Shown here one piece after another: positions 1,925-16,247 of a DNA stretch of 64,000 bases. The stretch covers positions 7,058-71,057 of the forward strand of contig CAJAHH010000015.1 in assembly GCA_903939515.1 (NCBI GenBank), given 5' to 3'. The stretch is from an uncultured Verrucomicrobiota bacterium. GTDB lineage: Bacteria; Verrucomicrobiota; Verrucomicrobiia; Limisphaerales; UBA9464. How positions within the stretch are numbered: the first letter of the stretch is position 1; every line of letters begins with the position of its first letter. The notes beneath the pieces are model-generated. The model had not been told where the DNA came from. It made no database searches and saw nothing but the letters and a program-made list of their open reading frames with translations. The position numbers and the translations under genes were made by a program.

Positions 1925-2968
1925 TTAGCACCAATGCGCCCCTTGGGCCTCGACATAAACCGAATAGAGACTGCGGCTGGCGGTCATGAAGAGCCGGTTC
2001 CGGCGCGGGCCTCCGAAACAAACGTTGCTGCACACTTCCGGTAGCAAAATTTGTCCGATGCGTTGGCCTTCCGGCGAGAAGATCTGCACGCCGTCATAGC
2101 CCTCGCCGCCCCAACCCGCGCCAGCCCAGACGTTGCCGTCCTTGTCGCAACGGATGCCATCTGCGAACCCAGCCACCTTCTTACCGTTGAGGTCCATTTG
2201 CATGGAAGTAAACTCGCGCCCGTTTTTTACCTTCTCACCGTCCATGTCCCAGACCTTGATATTCTTGGGTGCCTTGGGGTAGTGGCTAGCGCCGGTGTCC
2301 GCGACATAGACCTTCTTGTAATCCGCCGAAAAGCAGAGCCCGTTCGGCTTGAAGATCTCATCGGTCATCTTTTGCACCTTGCCGCTGCGGTCGATGCGAT
2401 AAACGGCCTCTTTGAGCACGAGATCGCCCTTGTTGCCCTCGTAGTTGCCGAGGCTGCCATATCCGGGATCGGTGAACCAAATGCTGCCATCGGGGTGCAC
2501 TACGCCATCGTTGGGTGCGTTGAACGGCTTGCCCTCAAACTTGTCGGCCAAGACGGTGAGGCTGCCGTCCGCCTCGTAGCGCACCACGCGCCGATTGCCA
2601 TGCTCGAAGGAAATCTGCCGGCCCTCGCGGTCAAAGGTGTTGCCGTTGCTATGGCCAGCGGGCTTGTGAATCGTCGTCACCGCGCCGTTATCCTGCAGCC
2701 ATCGGTGCTGGACGTCGTTCGGGATATCACTCCAGACGAGGTACTGTCCCCAGCCGCTCCAAGCCGGTCCTTCCGCCCAATACATACCGGTGTGCAGCCG
2801 TTCGATGGGAGAGGACCCGATCTTGTATTTCTCGAAGGCCTTATCGAGCGTGATGACATCGGGCTCGGGGTAACGGACCGGGGCCGCATTGACTCCGTAG
2901 TCTCGGGCTAAAAGGGGCATGGCAGCGAGCGAACCGATGGAGGAGAGGAAGGATCGACGAGTGGTCAT
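1925..2968 (-). CDS. SMP-30/gluconolactonase family protein, Tat-exported
   Basis: TRRSFL Tat motif; WAEGPAW, SNGNTFD, FNAPND, WFTDPGYG, PNGLCFS, ADGIRCD and NVCFGG. Confidence 0.92.
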   Translation of the reverse strand: MTTRRSFLSSIGSLAAMPLLARDYGVNAAPVRYPEPDVITLDKAFEKYKIGSSPIERLHTGMYWAEGPAWSGWGQYLVWSDIPNDVQHRWLQDNGAVTTIHKPAGHSNGNTFDREGRQISFEHGNRRVVRYEADGSLTVLADKFEGKPFNAPNDGVVHPDGSIWFTDPGYGSLGNYEGNKGDLVLKEAVYRIDRSGKVQKMTDEIFKPNGLCFSADYKKVYVADTGASHYPKAPKNIKVWDMDGEKVKNGREFTSMQMDLNGKKVAGFADGIRCDKDGNVWAGAGWGGEGYDGVQIFSPEGQRIGQILLPEVCSNVCFGGPRRNRLFMTASRSLYSVYVEAQGAHWC

Positions 2969-2992
2969 GGTGGGTGGATGGGTTGATCTGAA

Positions 2993-3970
2993 TTACCTCG
3001 GAGCGGTGACGCCATTGACGATGTTAGGCGGCAGTTCGCCACGCACGGCTTGAAGCGCGATGCGAGCGGCGCTCTCTCGCAGCGTCTTTACCGACGGCGG
3101 GCTCGCCGATGCGATGTGAGCAGCGAGAATCACGTTGGGCATAGTGCGGATAGGGTGGTCTGCAGGAATCGGCTCCGGATCAAACACATCGAGTGCTGCA
3201 CCGGCGAGATGACCCGATTGCAGGGCGGCGGTGACCGCGGTGCTATCTACCAAATCACCACGGCCCACGTTGATAAAGATCGAACCCGCTTTCATCTTCG
3301 CGAAGGCCGCTGCATTGAAGAGCTGCTTCGTCTTCGGTGTGGAGGGGCAATGCGGGGATACAATGTCGCTGTGCGCGAGCAACTCTTCGAATGAGGCCAC
3401 GGCTACTGCTCCGGATCTGGCTATTTCATCGGCCCCCACGACAGGATCATACACCAGCACCTTGGCCTTGAAGGCGAGCAGGCGCGTCACGACGTCCCGC
3501 CCAATGCGCCCAAAGCCCACAATTCCCACCGTCAGATGTTTCAGCGACGCCATGGAACTCAAGGGCGTTGCGAGCCCCCACTGCCCCTGGCGCAAGTGCA
3601 GGGCGTTGGGCACCACTTGGCGCGTGATGGCCAGAATGAAGGCGAGCGCGTGATCGGCCACCTCGTCGATGCAGTAATCCGGAATATTGCACACCGGGAT
3701 GCCGCGTTCGCGGGCAGCCGCGCAGTCCACATTGTCGTAGCCGACGCCATAGCGAACGATGGCTTTGGCCTTCGTCATGGCATGGACGACGTCCGCGTTG
3801 ACGGGGGCGAATTGGGCGATCACCGCATCGGCATTGCGCACCAACTCGGCAAGCTCTGCAGGCGAACGCTTTTCTTTGAAGGAAACGATCTCGATGCCCG
3901 CTGGACGAAGAACCGCTTCTTCCAGGCTGAGATCCGAAAAGGTGTAATCAGTAATGGCTACGGTAGGCAT
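2993..3970 (-). CDS. D-isomer-specific 2-hydroxyacid dehydrogenase (CtBP/SerA-like)
   Basis: RYGVGYDNVD, GIVGFGRIG, INVGRGDLVD, AALDVFDPEP and a C-terminal His (AAHIAS). Confidence 0.93.
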   Translation of the reverse strand: MPTVAITDYTFSDLSLEEAVLRPAGIEIVSFKEKRSPAELAELVRNADAVIAQFAPVNADVVHAMTKAKAIVRYGVGYDNVDCAAARERGIPVCNIPDYCIDEVADHALAFILAITRQVVPNALHLRQGQWGLATPLSSMASLKHLTVGIVGFGRIGRDVVTRLLAFKAKVLVYDPVVGADEIARSGAVAVASFEELLAHSDIVSPHCPSTPKTKQLFNAAAFAKMKAGSIFINVGRGDLVDSTAVTAALQSGHLAGAALDVFDPEPIPADHPIRTMPNVILAAHIASASPPSVKTLRESAARIALQAVRGELPPNIVNGVTAPR

Positions 3971-4050
3971 GGGTAGTTGGGGTGGGTTTTACAGCGGGAT
4001 TAAAGAGGTTTGCTGGTGGGGATTTCTGGATTTTCCGAAGGCAAAAATCA

Positions 4051-4947
4051 TCACTCGCCGATTGCGCGGACGGTGGTGAGTGACTGGATCAACGTGTGGT
4101 TCTCCCATTTCCAGACGACCCGCTTCTTCTTGTCATGCGTCACTTCGATGGCGTGAGCCCCCTGCCCTTCCTTGCCGCGCATGAAGTTGCCAATGAGCAG
4201 GTTTCCGTTCTTGAGCTGCTGAAGGCTGGAGATCCAGGTGATGTTCAAATCCGGAGCGTCCTTGTCGCTGAACTCCCACACGATTTGCTTGTCTCGCGTC
4301 ACCTCGATCAAACGCTTCTGCGTGCCGCAGCAAATGAGCGTATTACCATTGGGGAGTCGCTGCGCATCGCCCGTGTTGGTGACACCCGTGTATTCCCACA
4401 CCACCTTGCCGCTCGGGTCCACCTCGCGCACGGCACCCTCACCTTCATGGGCGGCCAGAATGTTGCCGTTCGCAAGCTTGTGGACGTTGCGCACTTGAAG
4501 GTGGTGCCCCTCGACAGTCGTGGTCAGCGGGGTGACATGGACGATTCGGCCCTGAGGATTCACTTCGACCGCCTGACACGGCCCCTGCTCGGCGACCAGC
4601 GTGTTGCCATTGGCCAAGCGCTCGCAGCCGAAGACTTGATGCGATTTGCTGACGTAATCGAACACCGTCTCCCCGCGCGATGTGATCTCGCGAACGCCGG
4701 TCGGAGTGCCACCGTAGCCGGAGAGTATATTGCCATTCGGCAACGCCTGGAAGATCACCGTCGTGCTCGGTGGATTAAACTCCCACACCTTCTTGCCCTC
4801 TGCATCGAGTTCGATAAACCGATTGGGCCCCTTGCCGTACTCGGTGAAGAGCAGTCGGTGTTTGATGGGCGCGTCCGCGGCGAAGGTCTGCGTGCCCGAA
4901 GACAACGCGAAGGCCAGAATGGCGATGATGAGGCGGGTAAAGTGCAT
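4051..4947 (-). CDS. Secreted beta-propeller protein (PQQ-like/arylsulfotransferase-like repeats)
   Basis: Signal peptide from MHFTRLIIAILAFAL (ATG 4947); repeated RLxNGNTLI...VxEVxxxGKVVWEY blades. Confidence 0.75.
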   Translation of the reverse strand: MHFTRLIIAILAFALSSGTQTFAADAPIKHRLLFTEYGKGPNRFIELDAEGKKVWEFNPPSTTVIFQALPNGNILSGYGGTPTGVREITSRGETVFDYVSKSHQVFGCERLANGNTLVAEQGPCQAVEVNPQGRIVHVTPLTTTVEGHHLQVRNVHKLANGNILAAHEGEGAVREVDPSGKVVWEYTGVTNTGDAQRLPNGNTLICCGTQKRLIEVTRDKQIVWEFSDKDAPDLNITWISSLQQLKNGNLLIGNFMRGKEGQGAHAIEVTHDKKKRVVWKWENHTLIQSLTTVRAIGE

Positions 4948-5312
4948 GGGGGGATTTAAAAGATGTGGAGGTCTAGGCCCGGACCTCACGAACGGACCGC
5001 CGTCATGGGCCGGTATTGCTGAGGCCGAGGGCATAGAAACCCCGGGGCAGCCCACTGAGACATTCCGGCTAAGACACTCTTTAGCAGCAACGGGAGACAG
5101 GATGGTGTCAGAGATCATGGGACCGAGCTTCGTTCAGGGGAGGCCTGAAGGATCACCGACAGCAACGGTGTTGGGAATGTTGTTTTTGGTGAGAAAGTAG
5201 GGGGGAGAGAAACCATCAAAGGGCGCGGCACCCTCGACACTTACTTCCTCAGCCCCCTTTCCGGCTAGGCACCGTAACTTGGCGATTCCACAGTCCAGGG
5301 ATCGACGACAAT

Positions 5313-5380
5313 CTGAACTGAAACGATTCAACGGACTCGGTCCGGCTGAACCGGAACGATTCAATTAGATCGGTCCGGCT
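5313..5380. repeat. Imperfect 33-bp tandem duplication
   Basis: ctgaactgaaacgattcaacggactcggtccgg (5313-5345) followed by ctgaaccggaacgattcaattagatcggtccgg (5346-5378). Confidence 0.7.
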
Positions 5381-7430
5381 ATGGACACGGCTTGAGGACG
5401 GGACCAAAGAGGGCCGAGATCTTCGGCGTGGCGTTGGTAACGGTGAGTGTCCATTCGCTCTGGGTCTGATCGACACCTGCTCCGCCCCACAGGGAAAGGC
5501 CATAGCCCAGATCCGGAACGGCAATCACCCGCACCTTCGAACCGTAGGGATACACCTTCATTGCCGGCTCCAATGCGATCTTTCCGCCGCCCGTCGCCAC
5601 GGTGTTGACGGTCGTCCCAAAAGTGGCGACCAAGCGGGCCGGGGCTTTTACCTCCCAGGAGAGCTTCGGATCATTGCCCACATAATCGCCACTCCAGCCA
5701 AGAAACTCCCATCCTCCGATGCCTATGGCCTGAAGAACCACCCGCTCGAACTGCGAATAGGTCCCAGCTCCGCTCACCCTCCCGCCGCGGGCCTCGATAG
5801 TCAGTTCATGCCTGGGAATAGGTTCGAAAACGGCGCGGACCTCACGGTGGGTCGACAGGATCAGGGTTGCCTGACGCTCTTCGCCACTCAGATCTCCCTC
5901 CCATCGGACCCACCGCCACCCATCAGCGGGGATCGCCTGAACCCTCACCGACTCGCCTTGCAAATACTGGTCTTGTTGTGGCGAGCACTCGAGCTTCCCC
6001 TCACCGGCCACCGACCATTTCAACGAAACGAACGGAACCAGCCGAATCTGGACTTGGGGCAATTCGAGGGTCTCGGTTAAGTCTTCGTTCAAGTGCAATT
6101 CCCTCAAAACGATACTTTGATCCACCGTGAATTCACCGGTGTACTTCCGAGATAGGACCGTCGGCTGGCTTCCATCGATCGAGTAGAAGATCTGCCCTCG
6201 TTCAAATCGATGCGACAAGCGGACTGTCGCCTGTTTTCCAACGTTCACTGAAGTGTCGGTTTCACGTCCGTTCACAATCCATCTGGGATGACCGTCCACA
6301 GTGATGTTCTTGCTCTCCAATTCCAACCAGGGCCGAGCTGGCCTGGGCAGCACCGACCTGAAACCCACCCGATTGTAGACTGTCTCCGGAGTGAAGGCCC
6401 GACGGTTGGCGATCTCGCAGTTCTTGGCGTTGTCGTACCAACCGCCGCCTCGGAACACCCGATGGACACCCACGTTGGGTCCACGAGGATCGGTTTGCGG
6501 ATCGGAGGTGTAGTCGCCAAACCGATCCCAGCACCATTCGAAGTGGTTGCCGGCCATGTCGAACAAGCCAAAGCCATTGGGCGGGTAAGAACCCACCTTC
6601 ACTGAACCGCTCTTCTCGGACTCGTCGTAATTGGCACGATCGGGAGTGATCTTCTCGGAGTCGCTCCACGGAAATCGATGACCGGCAGCGCCACCCCGGG
6701 CCGCTTTCTCCCACTCGGCTTCGGTCGGCAACCGATAGCCAGTTTGCCAATCCACATGAGGAGCAATGCGTCCGCTCCTGTAAACTATCGTGCCGGCTGA
6801 ATCCACGGTGTAAGCGGGTTTCATTCCCTCCATTTCACTGCGGGCGTTACACCACTTCACACAGTCGAACCAACTGACGGTGTGAACCGGATGTTCAGTG
6901 CCAAAACTCTGGCCGATTGGCAAATCGAGGTAGCCATGATCCAAGGACCATTGTCGCACAGAATCCCAGAGCTCCTTGGTGATCTCGTAAACGTCCATCG
7001 CATATTCAGAAACCCATACCGTGTGCGACGGACCGGCCATTTCAAAGGAACCCTCTCGAATCAAATTCATTCCGGCAGCCGGCTCCCAATCGGTAGTGCC
7101 CAACTTGAACCGCACGGTTCTGCTGTATCGATTGGCAAGGTCCACCGACGAATCCCAACGGATGTGCTGCACAATTCCCGGCTGGATCCCCCTTCCCACG
7201 GCACCCGTCGCGGAGGCTGTCGGCACCTCCCAGGTTTGCCCACCGTCTGCAGAGATTTTTAAATACACCGAAACGGCAGCATTGTCCGGATCCCGGATCT
7301 CATAAGAAATATCGACCGATCGGGTGCCGGTCATCTGCTCGGCCTGTACGTTCAGGATCACGGGTTCTACCGCAGCGAGCGGCGGCATGACCCAGAGCAT
7401 TAATGACCAATAAAGAGCCAACGGTCTCAT
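5379..7430 (-). CDS. Secreted FGE-sulfatase (SUMF1/EgtB/PvdO) domain protein with FN3-associated domain and InlB B-repeat-like domains
   Basis: Signal peptide; YRLPTEAEWEKAARGG, PNGFGLFDMAGN..EWCWD, RVFRGGGW and GFR; IFYSIDGSQPT; repeated A.P..GW.F..W.GD. Confidence 0.88.
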   Translation of the reverse strand: MRPLALYWSLMLWVMPPLAAVEPVILNVQAEQMTGTRSVDISYEIRDPDNAAVSVYLKISADGGQTWEVPTASATGAVGRGIQPGIVQHIRWDSSVDLANRYSRTVRFKLGTTDWEPAAGMNLIREGSFEMAGPSHTVWVSEYAMDVYEITKELWDSVRQWSLDHGYLDLPIGQSFGTEHPVHTVSWFDCVKWCNARSEMEGMKPAYTVDSAGTIVYRSGRIAPHVDWQTGYRLPTEAEWEKAARGGAAGHRFPWSDSEKITPDRANYDESEKSGSVKVGSYPPNGFGLFDMAGNHFEWCWDRFGDYTSDPQTDPRGPNVGVHRVFRGGGWYDNAKNCEIANRRAFTPETVYNRVGFRSVLPRPARPWLELESKNITVDGHPRWIVNGRETDTSVNVGKQATVRLSHRFERGQIFYSIDGSQPTVLSRKYTGEFTVDQSIVLRELHLNEDLTETLELPQVQIRLVPFVSLKWSVAGEGKLECSPQQDQYLQGESVRVQAIPADGWRWVRWEGDLSGEERQATLILSTHREVRAVFEPIPRHELTIEARGGRVSGAGTYSQFERVVLQAIGIGGWEFLGWSGDYVGNDPKLSWEVKAPARLVATFGTTVNTVATGGGKIALEPAMKVYPYGSKVRVIAVPDLGYGLSLWGGAGVDQTQSEWTLTVTNATPKISALFGPVLKPCP

Positions 7431-7505
7431 GAACGTTTTAAAAGTGTTTTGATTTCTAACACCTTGGTGCCAGCCAATCGTCGGCGATCGGATTCGCCGA
7501 GCGCC

Positions 7506-8480
7506 CTAGGCCTGAGTTACCACCTTGCGAGGCATCTGCTCGTAAATCACTCGGAGGGAGCTCTGCACGGCATGATTTTCGAGGGGTTGATCTTGGAGTT
7601 CCAGAGGCATCCATTGCCTGAGACGGGCCTCGCTCATCCCGCCCAGCCAGAGACTGAAGGCGAGATCCGACTCTCGTCGATCCAGATATTTCTGGCGCGC
7701 CCGATATGCTTCCAGTCGTTCGATGTTCTGCCGACGAACGGTGTCCGCCAGAGTCTCAAAGTTTGCGGGCGGTCCATAAGAACCGGTCTTGAGGATCTCC
7801 ATGAATCCATTGAGCAATCCCATTCTCATGGTTTTGCGGTTGACCCGAATATCAAAAGCAAAGGCTTCGATGGATAATTGCAATTCATCGAGACTCACAT
7901 TGCCCCATTTCCACACCTGCCGAAGATGACTCGGAGCAAACATCACCTGTTCTTGATGCAGTATTGAGCAATCCACTTCCAGCCATTCGTCAGGAATCTC
8001 CCGGGAGTTTTGACTTCCCCTAGGACGAGAGCCGAAACCGGCCACAGGATCGCTGGCATACTCAGGCCGACGGCTTGGGAATTCTGCGCCCGCCAAAAGG
8101 GGGGACCCTCCTCCCAAGCGGACGGTTGGCGAGGGGGTCAAGGGCCAGGCTCCGTCGGCGTGAGCATTCTGGATTTCCTGGAGCAATCCCGTGGCGATGG
8201 AGTAACTCACCCACCCGCCACGGCCGCGCTTGGATTGCGCCACCGAAATTAATCCCTCCCGAACCATGCGTGCCAAGGTTGTTTCGACGGTTCGCAAAGA
8301 CGCCCCCACTTGGTCGGCCAATGATCGAACGTTCAGCGGATCGGTCGACTCCGAGGCGAGGCTTTTTCGCGAGGCGCTGATGATTTCCATCAATCTCAAC
8401 TTCAGCCCAACAAGACCCAACAGTTGGGTGTTTGTTGTGCTTTTAACCATCATTTCGATGGGCGTTTGTTGGGTATTCAT
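7506..8480 (-). CDS. Winged-helix DNA-binding protein, plasmid/phage replication-initiator-like
   Basis: HTH plus wing: LNVRSLADQVGASLRTVETTLARMVREGLISVAQSKRGRGGWVSYSI. It is followed by a low-complexity linker and a helical C-terminal domain. The Rep role is inferred from architecture and context. Confidence 0.55.
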   Translation of the reverse strand: MNTQQTPIEMMVKSTTNTQLLGLVGLKLRLMEIISASRKSLASESTDPLNVRSLADQVGASLRTVETTLARMVREGLISVAQSKRGRGGWVSYSIATGLLQEIQNAHADGAWPLTPSPTVRLGGGSPLLAGAEFPSRRPEYASDPVAGFGSRPRGSQNSREIPDEWLEVDCSILHQEQVMFAPSHLRQVWKWGNVSLDELQLSIEAFAFDIRVNRKTMRMGLLNGFMEILKTGSYGPPANFETLADTVRRQNIERLEAYRARQKYLDRRESDLAFSLWLGGMSEARLRQWMPLELQDQPLENHAVQSSLRVIYEQMPRKVVTQA

Positions 8481-9039
8481 CGATTCCAAAAACGTTTTTA
8501 TTGATTTTTAAAACCCGACACAACCTGTTTGTAGGGTTTCAGAATCATCGCTCGTGCCAACGGGCGTGAGGCATCCGATGGCCATCTCGGGGAAATCTGG
8601 ACCCACTTCCACTCGAACTAGTGGCGGCCATTGTCCGTCGCTTTTCTCCACCCAAGTCCTCCTCCGGATATCCTCCCTTCGAGGCCAGTTTTCAACCCGC
8701 ATTGCCCAGCCAAAAAAACGTTCCCGTTTCAACCAACCGACCCTCTTTCGCCCTCTCGCCATCACTGAATCGACGGATATGCCCCTACCCCAAAAATTCT
8801 CACACCGTCCCGAGGCCAGCCTGCTGAGCCCCGCATCCCATTCTTGGTCGCCAAACGGATCGAGCTAACCAAGATAACCTATAACACCCACCGGGCCGAA
8901 TGAGCGGGTGTAATCCTGTTACTTCCCGCGAGCCACTGTGGCAACCCACTGAAAATTTGGAGTGAAATCACTGCTGGAATCATTTTTTGAATCCACCCCC
9001 TGTCTTTGCAGAAAATGGCCGGACCTTTAATAGCTCTCA

Positions 9040-9330
9040 ATCGGTGAGACTACCTCCACTAATTCAATCAATAACAACGTTGGAAAACCCTATTAGAATA
9101 AATCGATAAAATAAATAACCAACGCCACAAAATTTGATTTTTATTAAAACAATAAATCACATCCTGTTGGTTGAAAATCATAGGTTTTTCTTATTTTAAA
9201 CACGGCGCGGTTCAATATGTTAAAAATCAAACCACAGCAATGCATAAATATAAAAACTAGAAACAGTGACTCATTTAAATTCTAAATTATCCAATGATCA
9301 ATTCGCAAAAATCAATTAACCACCCTGAAT
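9040..9330. promoter_or_regulatory. Strongly AT-rich non-coding tract (candidate origin/unwinding element or promoter region)
   Basis: Hand count gives 65 G+C in the 240 nt of 9061-9300 (27%), against about 60% elsewhere. The ORF track shows nothing between 8868 and 9695. Confidence 0.6.
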
Positions 9331-9603
9331 TCGAACCTTCAATCCGACTCAACGTTTACCGAAGCATTTCACCCGGTTCTAAATTCAAAACCGGTGAAGT
9401 CTTTTGAGTCTAAATTCTGCGCCAACGAATCCCGGAATTCACGTGCCTGAGGCCCTGAATGCGTCAAAAGAGGGCTAAACCAGCCCAAAGGGTCGCAGCA
9501 GCAACCCGTTCACTCACGTCGCCACCATCATCACCCAGAAATCGCATCAGACTCCGGCCAAAAAGGGACAAGTTTCTTGAATTTTAGTATCTGCATTCAA
9601 TGC

Positions 9604-9679
9604 AATAACTCTAGGGCTAAGTCTATAAGCTAAGTCTCCAGAGTTAAATCTCTAGGACTAAGTCGCTAAGCCTGAGTCC
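9604..9679. repeat. Array of short degenerate direct repeats (consensus GCTAAGTCT)
   Basis: AATAACTCT 9604, GCTAAGTCT 9616, GCTAAGTCT 9629, GTTAAATCT 9643, ACTAAGTCG 9657 and CCTGAGTCC 9671 (12-14 bp period), plus GCTAAGCCT 9665. Confidence 0.65.
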
Positions 9680-9694
9680 GAACGATTCAATCCA

Positions 9695-11677
9695 CTAAGA
9701 GCCATTCGAAGTCTGAAACCCATCAAATCGGAAGGAATAAGGCGTGTCTGACGCTTTAATTTTAGGAAAATCGCGGGAGAGTTGAGGCGGAATCACTACT
9801 GCTGGCGTAGTACGAGCCTTCTCAGAAACACCAGACACACGACCACCCGCCGGATTGCTCAATTGGCTCGGGAAACGACCTTGTTCCTTCCAAATCAACA
9901 TCAGTGGCCGCCAATCCGAGGTCATCCCAACGCGAAGCTCCGGGTCTTTAGACCGCCATTGCCGGTGCAGAAAGGCCCCGTCTGTCGCCAATAACCCCAT
10001 GGCGATGGCTTGGCGCTCAAACGCCTCTTGGGAGGCCTTAGAATCGATTTCTGGCGGATCTGAAGCCAGTGCCCGAGGCTGCAGCTGCGCAAGTCTCCGG
10101 GGTAATGAGGTCGGTATCTGAACCGTTTGAGTATTTCGATTCATCGTTTCCGGCTTCTTTTCAACCACCGAATCAAGGGTGGTTGCTCCACCCTTACGAG
10201 TTGCTGCCGACTTTCGCCCACCCGCTGCCGACTTCTCCTTCCACTGCGTCAGACGCTCTTTCTGCTGCTGAAGGTCAAAATGGGTCAGTTCTTGAGGGTT
10301 TTGGGTCGCATGAAACATTCTCAACACCGAGGCAACAACGGTGGTTGAAGCACCCTTTCCAACCAAGCGTGCTGCTTGCTCTGGATCCTTGGGGACCGAA
10401 CCATTCTGCCAGCAATAAGAAAGCAGACGAATGTAAACCCCCTCTTCCTCCAAGCTCATCATCTGGATTTGCTGATTGGCCAAATACTCGGAAGGTGAAA
10501 ATGAAAACCCGGATGATTTCATGGATTTAGTGCGCTGAAAGGGCGTTTGTGGGGACGAAGGATACTGGGCACGAGAGGACGGGGCGGATATCTCTACCCT
10601 CTCAAATTCTGAATCTGCTTGATCTAATAGAGAATCCGATGGCTTGTGCTGGAGAAATTGAAAATCTAGATGAAAGCCGTGACCCAAGAAGCGGATATCT
10701 AGGTCAGTTTCTTTAACAGAAGACACAGACGAGTGATTTTGTAAGACAACAAAATTACTTTGAGCAATTTCTTTAAATCCAGACGCTGGAATAACTGAGG
10801 TCGAGGGCTTCCAATTTGTGACAGAGGGACGGATTGCTGTAGGCGTGGGGGGGTGAGAATGGATCCAAACTTCAATTTCTAAACGCATACGCCGATTGAA
10901 ATCTCGTATGCCGACCATTATTTCTAAGACAGTCTGGGTGCGGCGATCGGAGGATACAGAAGGAGGGGTAGCGATTGTTGGGCGACAACGCCAAACTCGG
11001 AATCGGTCACGGATCCGCTTGCGGTTGAGAGATACCAGCATCGCCGCACCCATGAGCAATAGCCCTATCCAAGCTTTGAAAGCAAAACGCCCCTGCCCCT
11101 CTTGAGACTCTCCCCCAGTGATATTCTGCTCAGCCTTTGGGAGGATCGGGGCCAAAGCACCTTCTGCTACAGGGCTAACTGTCTTCGCAAGATTCTGTGA
11201 ACTGATTGCCGCTGGCACTGTTACCGACTGAGGTACTGAGGGTTGCACTGAGGCAGCGACGGCTGCTTTGGGCGCCATCCGTGGGTTCTCGGAGACGATG
11301 CGGCGGTTTTGACTTTGAACAATTTGGGAAGCTACGAACGGTGAGGTTTTCTGAACCGCTGGATGGGACGGGATCACCAAGACCGACCCGGTCCGGATTC
11401 GATGAAGGTTCCCAGCCTGGAAGACCCCTGGATTCTCGCGTAGGAGCGCCAGGAGCATTTGATCCATGGTGACCGAATCCGGTTTGTAGCGACGAGCAAT
11501 ACGGTAGGCCGTTTCCCCCTCCTGAACCGTGACCCGTTTGGGGACAGAGGGGGTATTGGTCAGCGCCCCTGTACCAGAGGTGGATCCGATCAGCCCGTTG
11601 CACCCTCCTATCAGACACAAATACGCAATCAGCAGTTTTGGTAAACCACTGGTGGCCCATTTGGTCACAAGATGCAT
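9695..11677 (-). CDS. FimV-type LysM + TM protein fused to a YdaU/DUF1376 phage replication domain
   Basis: N-terminal hydrophobic segment; FimV core VTVQEGETAYRIA..VTMDQMLLALLRENPGVFQAGNLHRIRTGSVLVIP; TM AWIGLLLMGAAMLVSL followed by NRKRIR. From M at 10522: FSFSPSEYLANQQIQMMSLEEEGVYIRLLSYCWQNGSVP...KSAAGGRKSA. Confidence 0.7.
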   Translation of the reverse strand: MHLVTKWATSGLPKLLIAYLCLIGGCNGLIGSTSGTGALTNTPSVPKRVTVQEGETAYRIARRYKPDSVTMDQMLLALLRENPGVFQAGNLHRIRTGSVLVIPSHPAVQKTSPFVASQIVQSQNRRIVSENPRMAPKAAVAASVQPSVPQSVTVPAAISSQNLAKTVSPVAEGALAPILPKAEQNITGGESQEGQGRFAFKAWIGLLLMGAAMLVSLNRKRIRDRFRVWRCRPTIATPPSVSSDRRTQTVLEIMVGIRDFNRRMRLEIEVWIHSHPPTPTAIRPSVTNWKPSTSVIPASGFKEIAQSNFVVLQNHSSVSSVKETDLDIRFLGHGFHLDFQFLQHKPSDSLLDQADSEFERVEISAPSSRAQYPSSPQTPFQRTKSMKSSGFSFSPSEYLANQQIQMMSLEEEGVYIRLLSYCWQNGSVPKDPEQAARLVGKGASTTVVASVLRMFHATQNPQELTHFDLQQQKERLTQWKEKSAAGGRKSAATRKGGATTLDSVVEKKPETMNRNTQTVQIPTSLPRRLAQLQPRALASDPPEIDSKASQEAFERQAIAMGLLATDGAFLHRQWRSKDPELRVGMTSDWRPLMLIWKEQGRFPSQLSNPAGGRVSGVSEKARTTPAVVIPPQLSRDFPKIKASDTPYSFRFDGFQTSNGS

Positions 11678-11853
11678 ACAAGAGCAGGTTCGGAGGCTCG
11701 GATTGAAACCTCAAGATTCGGGCCACTAAACGGTCAAAAGACCCGTGATAGCACATTCACTGGAGGCGGACTCAGAACCCACTTGGGGCTTGCTAGCACT
11801 TTTATTCCATCCCTTCAACCTGTTTATGGCGAGGCCCTACGGCTACCCCAGGG

Positions 11854-13254
11854 CTACGACAGGTTGGAAGGGTGGTTGAAGGGTGGTGCTTCGCTGCTGG
11901 GTGTTGCTGGGGCCTCACCCGTCGATTCGGCCGAGGGAGGCTCTGCGGCGATCAGACTAGGCTGCGCTTCGGGTGGAACAGGTAGAGATTCCAAGGCTGG
12001 GCCCGCGTTGCGAGCAGGCGTTGGCGGCACTGAGGACCGAGCCAAAGCCTTTACCTCGCCACGAATCTCGCGGTTGATCGCTCGGATCTCGCGCATGAGG
12101 TCGAGTTTGACCTTTCGCTTCGGATCCCCGGATTTGACTCCTGGATCCACCGCTCCCACTCCGGAGACGAATTGCAACTTAACCCCGCCCGTCGTGCGCA
12201 TGAGCTCGCGCTGACGTTCGTTCTCCTTCAGTAGAGCTGCCAGACGCCGAATCTTCTGCTCCAGCATCTGGATCTGATCGTCTTTGAGGGCGAGATCCTT
12301 TTCCAACGGTCGATCCGTGTCGGCCTCCAAGAGTTGGCGGACGCCCCGAAGCAGGTCACGGCTGTGGCGGACGTCCTGGAATCGTCCGTCAAACAACCTC
12401 TCAAGGACCTTCTGAAGGCTGCTCTCCAGGTCTGCATCTTCCAGGGTACGCGGAGTCTGGGGTGCCTCCACCGACGCGGGAACTTTGCGCAGTCGCAGTG
12501 CCATGCGCAGGGTGCGGCGCAGCGCCCGCAAGCCAAACAGAAGGACCCGCACGGGTCCGGACTGGCGAGGCGAGGCCCGCCGCCATCGAGCCGGTCCGCC
12601 CGGGGGCGTCCATCCTGTTGGTGCAGTTTCCGGAAAGGCCTCTCCACGGTACAACCGCTGGGGCAGTTCGGGCCGCTGGGGCAGTTCGAGCAGTTCGGAA
12701 TCCAGTTCATCCCGGAAAGCGCGCCGCGGATTCTTCCGACGACGAGTCCGGGGCGTCAGCAACGGTCCCGAAGGTCGCACCATGCGCGGTGCCCCGGATT
12801 CATGACGGGTTTTCCACGCTTCCACGACCGGATCCACCACGGGTGCCGGTTTGGACGATTTCCGGTGAAGGCGCCCATGGATCGACCGTCGGAGCCAGCG
12901 CAATGCGATTTCGCCAGAGTCCGGGCGACGGCGCGGCGGTTTTGACAAGTCGGCGATAACATGCCCATGCGCTTTGAGCCAGGCAGTGAGTGCCAAGTCC
13001 GGAGGCGGTGTCTCTGAGGCTCGCAGCACCGGGCGTTTGCGGCGGCGCCGCTCCAGTACCCGGGCTAGAGAACGGAGAATTTTGAAGCGCAACCGCAGGC
13101 CGCCGTATTTCCAAAGCCAGCGGAGGAGGTCGGAGGCTTTTGAACCATCGGTCTCCGGCCGATAGCCGCCCACCATCATCCGTCGGATCAACTCCGCCCT
13201 CAGCCATACGGTGGGACGGCCTGATTCCAGCCGATGATGTTGGGTGCCACCCAT
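11854..13254 (-). CDS. Hypothetical protein: Arg-rich amphipathic N-terminus and coiled-coil C-terminal domain shared with its neighbours
   Basis: 466 aa ORF co-oriented with mamK; contains LEQKIRRLAALLKENERQ...PGVKSGDPKRKVKLDLMREIRAINR. Confidence 0.7.
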   Translation of the reverse strand: MGGTQHHRLESGRPTVWLRAELIRRMMVGGYRPETDGSKASDLLRWLWKYGGLRLRFKILRSLARVLERRRRKRPVLRASETPPPDLALTAWLKAHGHVIADLSKPPRRRPDSGEIALRWLRRSIHGRLHRKSSKPAPVVDPVVEAWKTRHESGAPRMVRPSGPLLTPRTRRRKNPRRAFRDELDSELLELPQRPELPQRLYRGEAFPETAPTGWTPPGGPARWRRASPRQSGPVRVLLFGLRALRRTLRMALRLRKVPASVEAPQTPRTLEDADLESSLQKVLERLFDGRFQDVRHSRDLLRGVRQLLEADTDRPLEKDLALKDDQIQMLEQKIRRLAALLKENERQRELMRTTGGVKLQFVSGVGAVDPGVKSGDPKRKVKLDLMREIRAINREIRGEVKALARSSVPPTPARNAGPALESLPVPPEAQPSLIAAEPPSAESTGEAPATPSSEAPPFNHPSNLS

Positions 13255-13333
13255 AGGATTTCGCCAGGGATGTCTCCGTGGTGCCCAAATGTCCCGAAAC
13301 CGATCTCAACGAGGGATTTCCCCGTCGCCAGAA

Positions 13334-14401
13334 TCAGGAAACCAAACCGCTCATTCCCTGCGAGGCCAGCTCTCGGTTGGTCCGGAACTCAGCCCAGAAC
13401 TCCGTCGGCATGTCCAAAGCGATCTTCAAGGCACCATTGGAACCGGCAAATTGGGGCTCCTCAACTAAGGTGACTTTGCCGCCACCGTACTCGCTCAACC
13501 CCTTTTCAATGGCTCGTCCGAGTCCGCGAATCTGGCTGCCGCCGCCGCCCAACAGGATGTTATTGCGCATCTTGGCCTGGAACTCGGGATCGTAGGTGGC
13601 GATGAGGTCCTGCAGTGCCTGGACCGTCGGCGGTACAATGGTGTAGCAGGCCGAATACACCTGTTCGGTCAGGTTGAAGTTCGTCGGCTTGCCACCGACC
13701 GGCAGGGTCTCTTCGACCTCGTCCATCTTCGGGCTGACCGAGGCGTGCCGTTCCTTAATGGCGCGCACCATATTAATGGAGAACTGAACTTCAGGAAACT
13801 TGTCCTGAATGAGCTTGGAGAGGGACTGATCGATGGAATCACCGGCCACGTAATGGGTACGCTGATCCTCAGCCGAGGGCATCGACCCGTGAACACGGCA
13901 AAGGTCGGTAGTGCCCGCGCCGATGTCGATCACCAGCGTGTCATCCAAGAAATCCAGGCCGTAAGCCACAGCAAAAGGCTCCGAGCACACGATCACCGAG
14001 TCGATGCAGTTAGCAGCGGCTTCCAGGATGGTGGCCTTGCCCGCCACACTGGCTTGGGCCGGAGCACCGATCACCGCGTAAATGACCGCATCGGCCGGAG
14101 CATTGATTTCGCGCACCACGTATTCCAACAAATCGCGAATCGCCTTCTTTACGGGCTCAGGGTCCACGACGCCCTGCTGCTTGACCGAGGCGCCTGCCAG
14201 GGGCCGATACAAATGAACGGACATGCGGTTTTCCAGCGCTTCCTGTCCGTAAATGATCTCCCGACCTCCCAATCGCTTTAGGGCGACATGGTCCTTCGGG
14301 TAGCCAACATACGACCAAACGGTCTTTCGAAAGCCATTGGACGCGGTGATGGATGTCCGACTGGTTCCTAAATCAATTCCGACAAAAATGGTTTCAGCCA
14401 T
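13334..14401 (-). CDS. mamK: MamK-family actin-like ATPase
   Basis: GIDLGTS, VGYPKD, AVIGAPA.AS, SEPFAVAYGL, VIDIGAGTTD, P.AEDQ.T..AG..ID, GGGSQIRGL and GALKIA.DMP..FW are collinear with Magnetospirillum MamK as I recall it (VVGYPKD, AVIGVPARAS, SEPFMVGYGL, GALRLAEELPPQYW). Likely start ATG 14401. Confidence 0.88.
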   Translation of the reverse strand: MAETIFVGIDLGTSRTSITASNGFRKTVWSYVGYPKDHVALKRLGGREIIYGQEALENRMSVHLYRPLAGASVKQQGVVDPEPVKKAIRDLLEYVVREINAPADAVIYAVIGAPAQASVAGKATILEAAANCIDSVIVCSEPFAVAYGLDFLDDTLVIDIGAGTTDLCRVHGSMPSAEDQRTHYVAGDSIDQSLSKLIQDKFPEVQFSINMVRAIKERHASVSPKMDEVEETLPVGGKPTNFNLTEQVYSACYTIVPPTVQALQDLIATYDPEFQAKMRNNILLGGGGSQIRGLGRAIEKGLSEYGGGKVTLVEEPQFAGSNGALKIALDMPTEFWAEFRTNRELASQGMSGLVS

Positions 14402-14654
14402 GAGACGCGTGTTGCTGGTAGTTTCTCCGATGAGCACAAAGGCTCAGAGGTGAATGCGTCAGCCAGCGCGCTGCCTTAAGATATTTTTTAGGATTTACCA
14501 AAAGAAATATTCAGCCTGGCCGTTGGGACCAGCAACGGTGCGCGAATTGCACCAAATCCAGGGTGCCGTGGATTTGGCAGCAGCCTTGGGGTCTGAAGAA
14601 CAGGGACGGCTCAAACCGAAGGGCACCGTCGGGGCCGCGGACCAACTCGGGCGA

Positions 14655-16247
14655 TCACGGTTGCTGAGTGACGGGAGCGACTCGGCCTTGGACGACCCGG
14701 TTAAAGTCACGAATCTCGATGAGCAACCGCAGTTTGAGGTCTCGCTGAGGGTCGTTGTCCTTGAGTCCCGGCTCAGACAAGGCCATCAGGAGCCATCGGT
14801 AGGATCGCGAGACGAATCCTTCTTTCCGATTTCGGCGCTCACTCTCTCCGATCAGGCCTGCCAGACGGCGGATCCTGCTTTCGAGTGCCTGCTCGAGGTC
14901 GCTCTGATAGGCGTGCTCCTTCCTCAAAGCGGCCATCAACCGTTCCACTTCGGCCTCTTCTTGGAGTCGCTGCCGTCGACCGGTTTCCGGAAGACTGGAG
15001 GCCGTTGCATCAACGGGCTTTGGAATCGGGACTCGCTGCGGAACAGCCGCCGGTCGGGATGCGCTGGGAACCACGACCGGCTTCAGCAATCGAGATGGCG
15101 GCTGAGAAACGGCCGGCGCCTTCGACTCTTCTGGAGCCAATTTCACTGGCATCGACTGGGTCTGAGGCACGATCGGTGTTTTCACCACAGGGATCGGAGC
15201 CGGATCGGGTTGCCGCACTGGATCAGGTTGCCGCACCGGATCAGGTTGCCGCACTGGATCAGGTTTCGGTTCTGATTTGGAAACAGGCTCTTTGGCAACG
15301 TCTGCCCGTTCATGAGGCTCCGTCGGCTGAGCTTTTTTTACTGCTCGGAACCACCCCCAGGCCACTGCCACCGCCAAAGCGGCAATGCCCAGCACCCATA
15401 GCCAACCTCCAAAGAATTCACTCGTCGGGGTGCGGTCGGCGGCAACAACGGGGGCCGACTGCGGCGATTCCGGTGCCAGTGGTGGTGATGGTTCAAGTGC
15501 CGGAGCAGCAGGCTCAACAACGTCCGTCATTGGGGACCGCACCGTCGAAGCCACAATTTTCTCGGAAACTCCACCACGGGTCAGCTCTCCGGGTGCTTTC
15601 CAAGTCAGCTCATTCTCAGTGTTCTGTGGCCGAAGGGCTTCCGCCTGAACGGGTTGAGCCAGGACTTCTACCCGATTGCTTCGGCCATTCAATGGCGTTC
15701 GAAACCTATCAGCCTGGGCCGCCCGGAAGGCTTCGTACTCCCGAATTTGCTCGGCGATGATCCGTCGGGCCTCGGCCAACGGGATCGCCAAGGCCATGCG
15801 TGCGTCGGGGATTTTTAAGACGGCACCGGCCGGCAGGCGATTGACATTGCCGCCCCCGAACACTTCCGGGTTCCGTCGCAACAGAGCCACGAGCATTTGG
15901 TCGAGCGACACCTCCGCCGGCAAACGCACCACGGCGATCTCGCTCGCCGTATCGCCAGGCTGAACCTCGATTTCTTCGCCTCGAGGCTCACCACTGTCAG
16001 AGGGGCGGGCTTCGGACCTGTTGGCAGGAGCTGAAGCCCTGAGGGCAGCCGGGGTGCCGCCATAACGTGTCTCTCGTGCAGGCGCAATCGCTGCAGATTG
16101 ACCGAAAACGCTCGGCAACCAGAGGAGCGCAGCACACCAAAGCCCCGCCCTGAGAGGAGAGGCCACCTTTCGATGGGATGCGTCGACAGACGGGTTCAGT
16201 GGCACCATGGCGGAGGGCTCGCTTGCGGCGAAATGACTCCAACTCAT
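14655..16247 (-). CDS. FimV-type LysM + TM + Pro-rich linker + coiled-coil domain protein
   Basis: Signal-like segment; FimV core VQPGDTASEIA...VSLDQMLVALLRRNPEVFGGGNVNRLPAGAVLKIPD; TM WLWVLGIAALAVAVAWGWF followed by RAVKK; C-terminal LESRIRRLAGLIGESERR...PGLKDNDPQRDLKLRLLIEIRDFNR. Confidence 0.8.
   Translation of the reverse strand: MSWSHFAASEPSAMVPLNPSVDASHRKVASPLRAGLWCAALLWLPSVFGQSAAIAPARETRYGGTPAALRASAPANRSEARPSDSGEPRGEEIEVQPGDTASEIAVVRLPAEVSLDQMLVALLRRNPEVFGGGNVNRLPAGAVLKIPDARMALAIPLAEARRIIAEQIREYEAFRAAQADRFRTPLNGRSNRVEVLAQPVQAEALRPQNTENELTWKAPGELTRGGVSEKIVASTVRSPMTDVVEPAAPALEPSPPLAPESPQSAPVVAADRTPTSEFFGGWLWVLGIAALAVAVAWGWFRAVKKAQPTEPHERADVAKEPVSKSEPKPDPVRQPDPVRQPDPVRQPDPAPIPVVKTPIVPQTQSMPVKLAPEESKAPAVSQPPSRLLKPVVVPSASRPAAVPQRVPIPKPVDATASSLPETGRRQRLQEEAEVERLMAALRKEHAYQSDLEQALESRIRRLAGLIGESERRNRKEGFVSRSYRWLLMALSEPGLKDNDPQRDLKLRLLIEIRDFNRVVQGRVAPVTQQP
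15202..15265. repeat. 18-bp coding tandem repeat, about 3.5 copies (PDPVRQ)
   Basis: Units of ggatcaggttgccgcact start at 15202, 15220 and 15238, with a partial copy at 15256. Confidence 0.9.

Follow-up and report, generated by a model that had tools for sequence, protein, structure and literature searches.

A cassette of five genes built around a MamK-like actin has been found in a 64,000-nucleotide stretch of DNA (the window) from an uncultured freshwater Verrucomicrobiota bacterium (assembly GCA_903939515.1, contig CAJAHH010000015.1, positions 7,058 to 71,057; Limisphaerales, UBA9464). The genes lie on the minus strand in the order A, actin, B, C and, beyond a 1.2-kb gap, D, and constitute a discrete unit of ~8.9 kb (Table 1). 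Comparison of the encoded proteins indicates that a module of ~88 residues, predicted to consist of a coiled coil and a terminal helix, recurs in A and B and that C carries a copy reduced to the helix, the module corresponding to the C-terminal part of an unnamed, predicted helical family of ~250 residues encoded beside MamK-like actins. The homology of the module, its linkage to actin genes, the order of LysM domain, transmembrane (TM) helix and module, the purifying selection acting on the three copies and the insertion of the cassette are established. The reading favoured here, which is given somewhat better than an even chance, is that the terminal helix would bind the actin and that A and C, spanning the inner membrane, would tether the filament to the cell wall.

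The initial annotation had proposed that one domain recurs in all three neighbours of the actin. The positions that it gave are correct, with segments beginning at 14885, 14771 and 14714 in A, at 12264, 12144 and 12087 in B and at 10966 and 10909 in C; the full module is nonetheless confined to A and B, while C retains a helix of ~25 residues without the coiled coil. The modules of A and B align with a local score of 136, compared with a mean of 28 and a maximum of 56 among shuffled sequences (0 of 2000 as high), and tblastn of the module segments against the bacterium's own genome gives E ~1e-10. When a profile is made of the terminal half, outside the coiled coil, from non-verrucomicrobial rows only, it ranks B (18.2 bits) and A (16.8 bits) first and second among the 3.8 million residues of six-frame open reading frames of this genome, with the next match at 5.5 bits. 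Coiled-coil composition therefore does not explain the match, and the similarity extends beyond it. The copy in C is less conspicuous. Its cytoplasmic part aligns weakly with that of A (a score reached by 342 of 2000 shuffles) and better with that of B (13 of 2000), the short segments of C score against those of A and B at levels reached by 2 and 0 of 2000 shuffles, and broad module profiles miss this copy in the genome (rank 87 or absent). With a local terminal-helix profile made from 12 verrucomicrobial A- and B-type segments, and including no C sequence, C is third genome-wide (17.7 bits, E 0.002; next 6.4 bits), and its orthologues in loci L157, L159 and L161 are recovered (E 0.0009-0.002); the distant orthologues in L176 and L178 match weakly (E 0.17). 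By eye, six of the seven most conserved helix positions are present in C. The suggested reuse of coiled coil, turn and helix thus holds for A and B, the proline-rich "turn" of C being variable among orthologues.

The family to which the module belongs opens with a strand-helix motif at its N-terminus, followed by two long helices and one short one, and closes with a terminal helix. Residues 268-402 of B correspond to its last 135 residues (family alignment A4; hhalign probability 96.9%, E 2e-10), A matches the last ~85 and C the terminal helix alone; the N-terminal motif (profile positions 1-60) is missing from both B, which aligns from position 90, and A, which aligns from position 167. The predicted structure of the partner family (predicted local distance difference test score, pLDDT, 82; predicted template modelling score 0.48) contains one long and one short helix, with the terminal helix set apart from them. 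Members carry the name "hypothetical" in their source records, and searches of Pfam, NCBIfam, PDB sequences and the ESM Atlas yielded no family for either the module or the full partner. Foldseek gave no match to the partner model at E 0.001, and VIA-align returned tied generic coiled coils (best Z 9.5), a result that leaves a new fold neither shown nor excluded. Neither the partner family nor its LysM fusion was found described in a literature search outside which subscription papers mostly fell. The heads of the partners vary, with PilZ-like domains in 6 and receiver domains in 1 of the 53 proteins scanned and, by eye, a GGDEF-like head in L133, and the module appears to be the part that is retained while the remainder of the protein changes. 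Within it, an asparagine (72 of 73 rows) and a lysine (65 of 74 rows) are near-invariant. In L143 (1404-4949), the module stands at the end of a Wzc-like membrane protein (by eye) encoded directly upstream of a planctomycete actin, which constitutes a second, independent graft onto a membrane protein. In L091 (2569-4319) and L129 (2623-4371) the partner apparently occupies two frames, a gene for the head and, after it, a frame in which two terminal-helix-like motifs stand in tandem, with weak scores.

Linkage of the homologues to actin genes, which the initial annotation had anticipated, is extensive. A profile seeded by A and B alone found the module at 63 of 78 related actin loci in its first round (64 with the window), and after iteration a same-strand module gene was present beside the actin in 69 of the 78. 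Seven of the nine misses end less than 400 bp upstream of the actin; of the others, L074 was found with a broader profile and L058 holds an additional actin copy, the other copy of that genome being partnered. At the 59 loci from outside Verrucomicrobiota, the gene immediately upstream of the actin carries the module, and no second carrier was detected. Among 301 Planctomycetota genomes, searched with the module profile at 17-20 scored candidates per genome, the module occurs in 89 and a MamK-like actin in 112; all 89 module genomes have the actin, and the module is found in 0 of the 189 actin-negative genomes. Of 116 module matches in this phylum, 99 precede a listed actin on their strand by at most 1.2 kb, the listed actins being 150 of 160 matches. 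An upstream module match was lacking in the first search for 51 of these 150, and among 40 such loci examined a broader profile found the module in 12 and the N-terminal motif was seen in a further 4, which makes 16 with a clear partner; ~4 were weak and ~20 showed nothing. Distances between actins and between modules are correlated over 74 pairs (r 0.85; 0 of 2000 shuffles), which indicates co-inheritance only.

In A and C the module is combined with a domain predicted to bind the cell wall. Both proteins exceed the cut-off of 43.45 bits for the FimV_core LysM family TIGR03505 (A 60.7, C 69.4 bits), and hydropathy indicates a single TM helix after the LysM region in each, followed by basic residues, so that the module lies after the helix in both membrane proteins, as originally described. 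The scaffolds are not, as had been supposed, otherwise unrelated, since the FimV LysM cores of A and C are 41% identical and B belongs to the partner family as a truncated member. The full LysM-TM-module fusion of A is also present in L001, L003, L005-L008 and L176-L179. FimV LysM has been reported to bind peptidoglycan and to be required for polar anchoring, and the FimV/HubP polar landmark proteins resemble A and C in having a LysM core followed by one TM helix (PMC12918733, seen in part). They differ in that the cytoplasmic linker of A is proline-rich and its C-terminal place is taken by the module; C ends in a DUF1376 region, and neither protein matches, in Pfam or NCBIfam at E 0.1, the C-terminal tetratricopeptide-repeat/FimV domain or the acidic cytoplasmic region of FimV/HubP. 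FimV_core was detected in 1 of 301 Verrucomicrobiota genomes, that of the window, in a search whose sensitivity is unproven, as 0 of 14 control genomes gave a match. On plasmid records, the LysM of A matches proteins of Ralstonia megaplasmids (38-47% identical). An apparently stand-alone module, P0124 (118 aa), was rejected as a late start call, its loci showing a LysM-TM fusion frame of 566-637 aa. In the P0124 cluster and in L176 (6444-8354), public gene calls hold only the last 105-118 residues of the A orthologues, which masks the fusion.

All three copies are conserved relative to the linkers, which reflects purifying selection. Ratios of nonsynonymous to synonymous polymorphism (pN/pS), calculated from pooled pairwise counts against three to five relatives and given without confidence intervals, are 0.22 and 0.25 for the module of A (linkers 0.64-0.75), 0.09 and 0.07 for that of B and 0.23 for the helix of C (flanks 0.55 and 0.56); residues 386-500 of C give 0.13, and the values for the actin and the LysM of A are listed in Table 1. 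These ratios bear on the possibility that B is the sole working partner, the copies in A and C being leftovers of a recent duplication without any role toward the actin. The C copy is indeed short, weak and degenerate in L176, and among congeners the actin (97-100% identity) has diverged far more slowly than A (56-89%) and C (59-81%), a pattern also seen between L176 and the window, where identity over the aligned parts is 42% for A, 63% for B, 46% for C, 66% for D and 97% for the actin. Such leftovers are nevertheless highly improbable given the low ratios of the two copies compared with 0.55-0.75 in the neighbouring linkers, and in L176 the module of A is still ~60% identical although the linker around it can no longer be aligned.

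Taking into account that many scaffolds have retained a short helix and that nearly all genomes in which it occurs have this type of actin, contact between the helix and the actin is the simplest account; should the tail bind actin, A and C would consequently tie the filament to the wall. The terminal helix may dock on the actin in the manner of the C-terminal helices of ParR and arcadin-2, which have been described as binding their actins in the hydrophobic groove between subdomains IA and IIA (PMC5173319, seen in part). In those systems too the conserved part of the neighbouring gene's product is a C-terminal helix, which offers a possible model of binding; no sequence or fold match to ParR or arcadin-2 was found for the partner, nor any to a ribbon-helix-helix (the head was not folded separately). 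The coiled coil of A and B would dimerise and so present two helices, the FimV-type LysM domains would bind peptidoglycan and fix A and C at one site, possibly the pole, and B, which has no TM helix and shows basic amphipathic helices at its N-terminus (hydrophobic moments), would be the inherited cytoplasmic adaptor, possibly associated with the membrane through those helices. A different role for the module, as an oligomerisation domain by which A, B and C form a coiled-coil scaffold while the actin is bound elsewhere (for instance by the middle of B) or indirectly, is considered rather unlikely. It would fit the first half of the module, which is a canonical heptad helix whose most conserved positions are leucine or isoleucine, the generic coiled coils that fold searches yield, the interaction network formed by the coiled-coil Mad proteins (PMC12748827, seen in part) and the module paralogues away from actins. 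It does not account well for C, where the terminal helix is under selection without a coiled coil, for the single module gene at the 59 non-verrucomicrobial loci, or for the polar nature of the near-invariant asparagine and lysine. The interpretation first offered for this locus is therefore retained in part: similarity independent of the coiled coil, linkage to actins and conservation of the module are borne out, and the unrelated scaffolds are not.

Several observations weigh against binding of the actin by the terminal helix, a property that we infer. All verrucomicrobial helix copies have an arginine where the family mostly has phenylalanine, and the distant C orthologue in L176 has lost two hydrophobic helix positions. 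In L005, an insertion of 5.8 kb (2190-8000) containing a subtilase-like gene (by eye) parts A from the actin. Of the planctomycete module matches, 17 of 116 are not beside an actin and, conversely, solitary MamK-like actins exist. The short partners in L090, L092, L094 and L100 were recognised through the N-terminal motif; their scores with the terminal-helix profile are poor or absent, so that the head of the partner could matter as much as its tail. Because the genomes are related, the counts also overstate the independence of the cases.

Table 1. Features of the actin cassette (positions within the 64-kb window; aa, amino acids).
Feature	Position	Strand	Description
Gene A, 530 aa	14655..16247	-	Signal-peptide-like start, FimV-type LysM core, linker, one TM helix, proline-rich linker, C-terminal module
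FimV_core LysM of A, residues 99-168	15744..15953	-	TIGR03505; pN/pS 0.13
Predicted TM helix of A, residues 277-302	15342..15419	-	Kyte-Doolittle peak 2.11
Module copy in A, residues 437-524	14676..14939	-	Coiled coil and terminal helix with a G/DP loop between them; own-genome profile match at E 1.5e-20
MamK-like actin, 355 aa from ATG at 14401	13334..14401	-	NF040964; PDB 5jyg; pN/pS 0.03
Gene B, 466 aa	11854..13254	-	C-terminal part of planctomycete actin-partner domain; hhalign vs alignment A4
Module copy in B, residues 313-402	12049..12318	-	Profile E 1.0e-22 in own genome
Gene C, 660 aa	9695..11677	-	FimV LysM core, TM helix, helix-only module, small conserved region, DUF1376/phage primosomal-type domain
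FimV_core LysM of C, residues 55-126	11300..11515	-	TIGR03505
Predicted TM helix of C, residues 197-218	11024..11089	-	Kyte-Doolittle peak 1.85
Reduced module of C (terminal helix), residues 247-272	10862..10939	-	Third-ranked match genome-wide, E 0.002
DUF1376/primosomal-type domain of C, from residue 386	10118..10522	-	Predicted DNA-binding; PF07120 and phrog_9327 matches
Intergenic stretch C-D, 1.2 kb	8490..9694	.	AT-rich mid-part; poorly conserved; no repeat array
Gene D, 327 aa, last gene of cassette	7506..8489	-	Winged helix-turn-helix protein with likeness to plasmid proteins of unknown function

The remaining parts of the cassette raise the question of a link to DNA. The second half of C matches the phage primosomal family phrog_9327 (E 8e-12) and, below the cut-off, PF07120 (DUF1376; E 2.9e-5), and tblastn with the DUF1376 part found no phage record. 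C is a single open frame in L002, L005, L008, L176 and L178 as well, while in L006 a stop near residue 353, at the contig end, lies ahead of the DUF1376 part. D gives weak matches to winged helix-turn-helix proteins and replication initiators and is 21-39% identical to proteins on 110 plasmid records, the one such match inspected lying directly after a ParA gene; it occurs in 6 of 24 genomes of the genus, every one with the cassette, and its structure model was unusable (pLDDT 35, five sequences). In the five intergenic stretches between C and D that were compared, no conserved repeats of the centromere or iteron type were found, and Rfam gave no match. The cassette might position DNA, with C and D gripping a site and the actin and wall anchors placing or segregating it in a ParM-ParR-like manner, the parts of C and D having come from phage or plasmid replication modules. 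This is thought quite unlikely. The primosomal match, its preservation in frame in five relatives with a pN/pS of 0.13, the plasmid-like character of D and its restriction to cassette genomes point toward it; however, the C-D stretch offers neither a conserved repeat array nor a conserved site, the cassette is chromosomal and fixed at one site in congeners, L038 and L041 have the actin and a B-type gene without a match to C or D (within the 1.4 and 3.5 kb downstream that were examined), the stop in L006 precedes the DUF1376 part, and DNA binding is no more than a prediction for C and D. A combination of the two ideas, in which a horizontally assembled C, comprising predicted LysM, TM helix, actin-binding helix and phage-derived DNA-binding domain, would bridge wall and DNA and, together with A, B and D, anchor the filament and position DNA in a free-living cell, is distinctly improbable. 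Elsewhere in C, residues 301-345 (10643-10777) are conserved (pN/pS 0.29) with a low GC content at third codon positions and no family match, and a short tandem proline-rich repeat in the cytoplasmic linker of A (15212-15277) differs in copy number among relatives.

The actin itself is of a known type. It scores 385.7 bits (E 1.7e-115) against the MamK family NF040964, a near miss of the curated cut-off of 400, and matches PDB 5jyg (E 6e-74); the genome also has a normal MreB. No mam genes lie beside the actin, and profiles of MamI and MamM, the only two mam families searched, found nothing in this 96% complete genome, the MamI control also being silent. Near-identical actins occur in lake and river records titled Verrucomicrobia, and the actins most closely related to it come from planctomycetes. 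The MamK-like actin of Saltatorellus ferox Poly30, saltatorellin, is likewise found outside magnetotactic bacteria in a host that also has a normal MreB, and it differs in its host, the window coming from a Verrucomicrobiota genus; the window actin is probably its ortholog. The parts seen of the main text describing saltatorellin make no mention of the gene neighbourhood of the actin or of coiled coils (bioRxiv 10.1101/817700). BeeR, in what was seen of its description, is also a MamK-related actin of Verrucomicrobiota (bioRxiv 10.1101/2023.11.07.565980), but the window actin scores 207.8 bits against NF053558, for which the cut-off is 530, and lacks the N-terminal extension of 30-50 aa, its actin fold beginning at residue 4. 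Another actin of the relatives, 33-35% identical to that of the window, is probably BeeR; at its loci (L150, 4001-4702; L151, 4124-4825; L153, 6182-6901; L154, 6318-6887; L156, 6170-6889) a conserved upstream gene of ~170 aa ends in a conserved short helix-like motif without a match to the module profiles. Among the 24 congeners, the MamK-like actin occurs in 9 (97-100% identity), a 35% identical actin in 4 others and both in none, numbers too small to exclude chance.

McaA has been described as possessing a periplasmic domain, a TM helix and a cytoplasmic MamK-binding part (PMC13170167, seen in part), a layout that matches A and C, in which LysM takes the place of the VWA domain of McaA. The coiled-coil Mad proteins of deep-branching magnetotactic bacteria, which interact with themselves and with each other, are similar in that several coiled-coil proteins are encoded together with a MamK-type actin, according to the portion of the source consulted (PMC12748827). 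Both differ from the cassette in their context, as no magnetosome genes were found around the window actin. None of the 25 NCBIfam families shown, of 41, for the module members is a magnetosome family; the Pfam and NCBIfam families shown for the module include none for MamJ, McaA/B or Mad proteins, models of which may be absent from these libraries, and their sequences were not directly compared.

In the congener G560 (L167) the two genes that flank the cassette are adjacent, and this empty site identifies the ~8.9-kb cassette as an insertion. The module is present in 11 of the 24 genomes of the genus, in 0 of 57 other genomes of the family and, as a real match, in 1 of 251 genomes of the order; two further order-level matches (E 1.6e-4, with stops, and 9.3e-4) were set aside as partial coiled-coil matches with no actin in the DNA examined. 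The full order A-actin-B-C-D is found in L008, L176 and L178, and in L005 with its insertion, and transposase-like fragments (by eye) adjoin the cassette in L002 (1-531) and L008 (15365-15925). In the distant L038 and L041, no match to A was found upstream of the actin and B-type gene. In a quick tree, in which the mis-extracted row L102 (49% filled) was left out of account, the five verrucomicrobial actins form one group within the planctomycete rows (Shimodaira-Hasegawa-like approximate likelihood ratio test support 99). The actin and B would have arrived first, from a planctomycete donor; A and C would have arisen later, when the tail was copied onto a FimV fragment that came from outside.

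Traces of the cassette have also been found in RNA. In 24 runs from 21 freshwater, river or estuary studies, 20-34% of the sampled words were present, and in the four runs examined contigs cover parts of all five genes, two of them bridging B and the actin. These contigs reveal neither strand nor level, nor do they show a single transcript; in one run the intergenic stretch is covered too, and that run may contain DNA. Positions 8479-9472 had no cover in three of the four runs, which is not evidence of silence. No excess of promoters or terminators was seen.

While the type of actin was already known from saltatorellin (bioRxiv 10.1101/817700, seen in part), the novelty lies in its transfer to Verrucomicrobiota, the joining of LysM and TM helix to the module in two proteins, the copy that consists of the helix alone and the fusion of C with a DUF1376 domain. 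Bacterial actins have few known accessory factors (PMC13170167, seen in part), and MamK-like actins in 112 of the 301 Planctomycetota genomes searched give the measure of how far the question of their partners reaches. The cassette narrows the partner family to a module of 88 residues and a helix of 25 residues, which are candidate binding peptides. If the proposed tether is correct, an actin would have been redirected to the cell wall by means of one helix grafted onto a FimV-type anchor.

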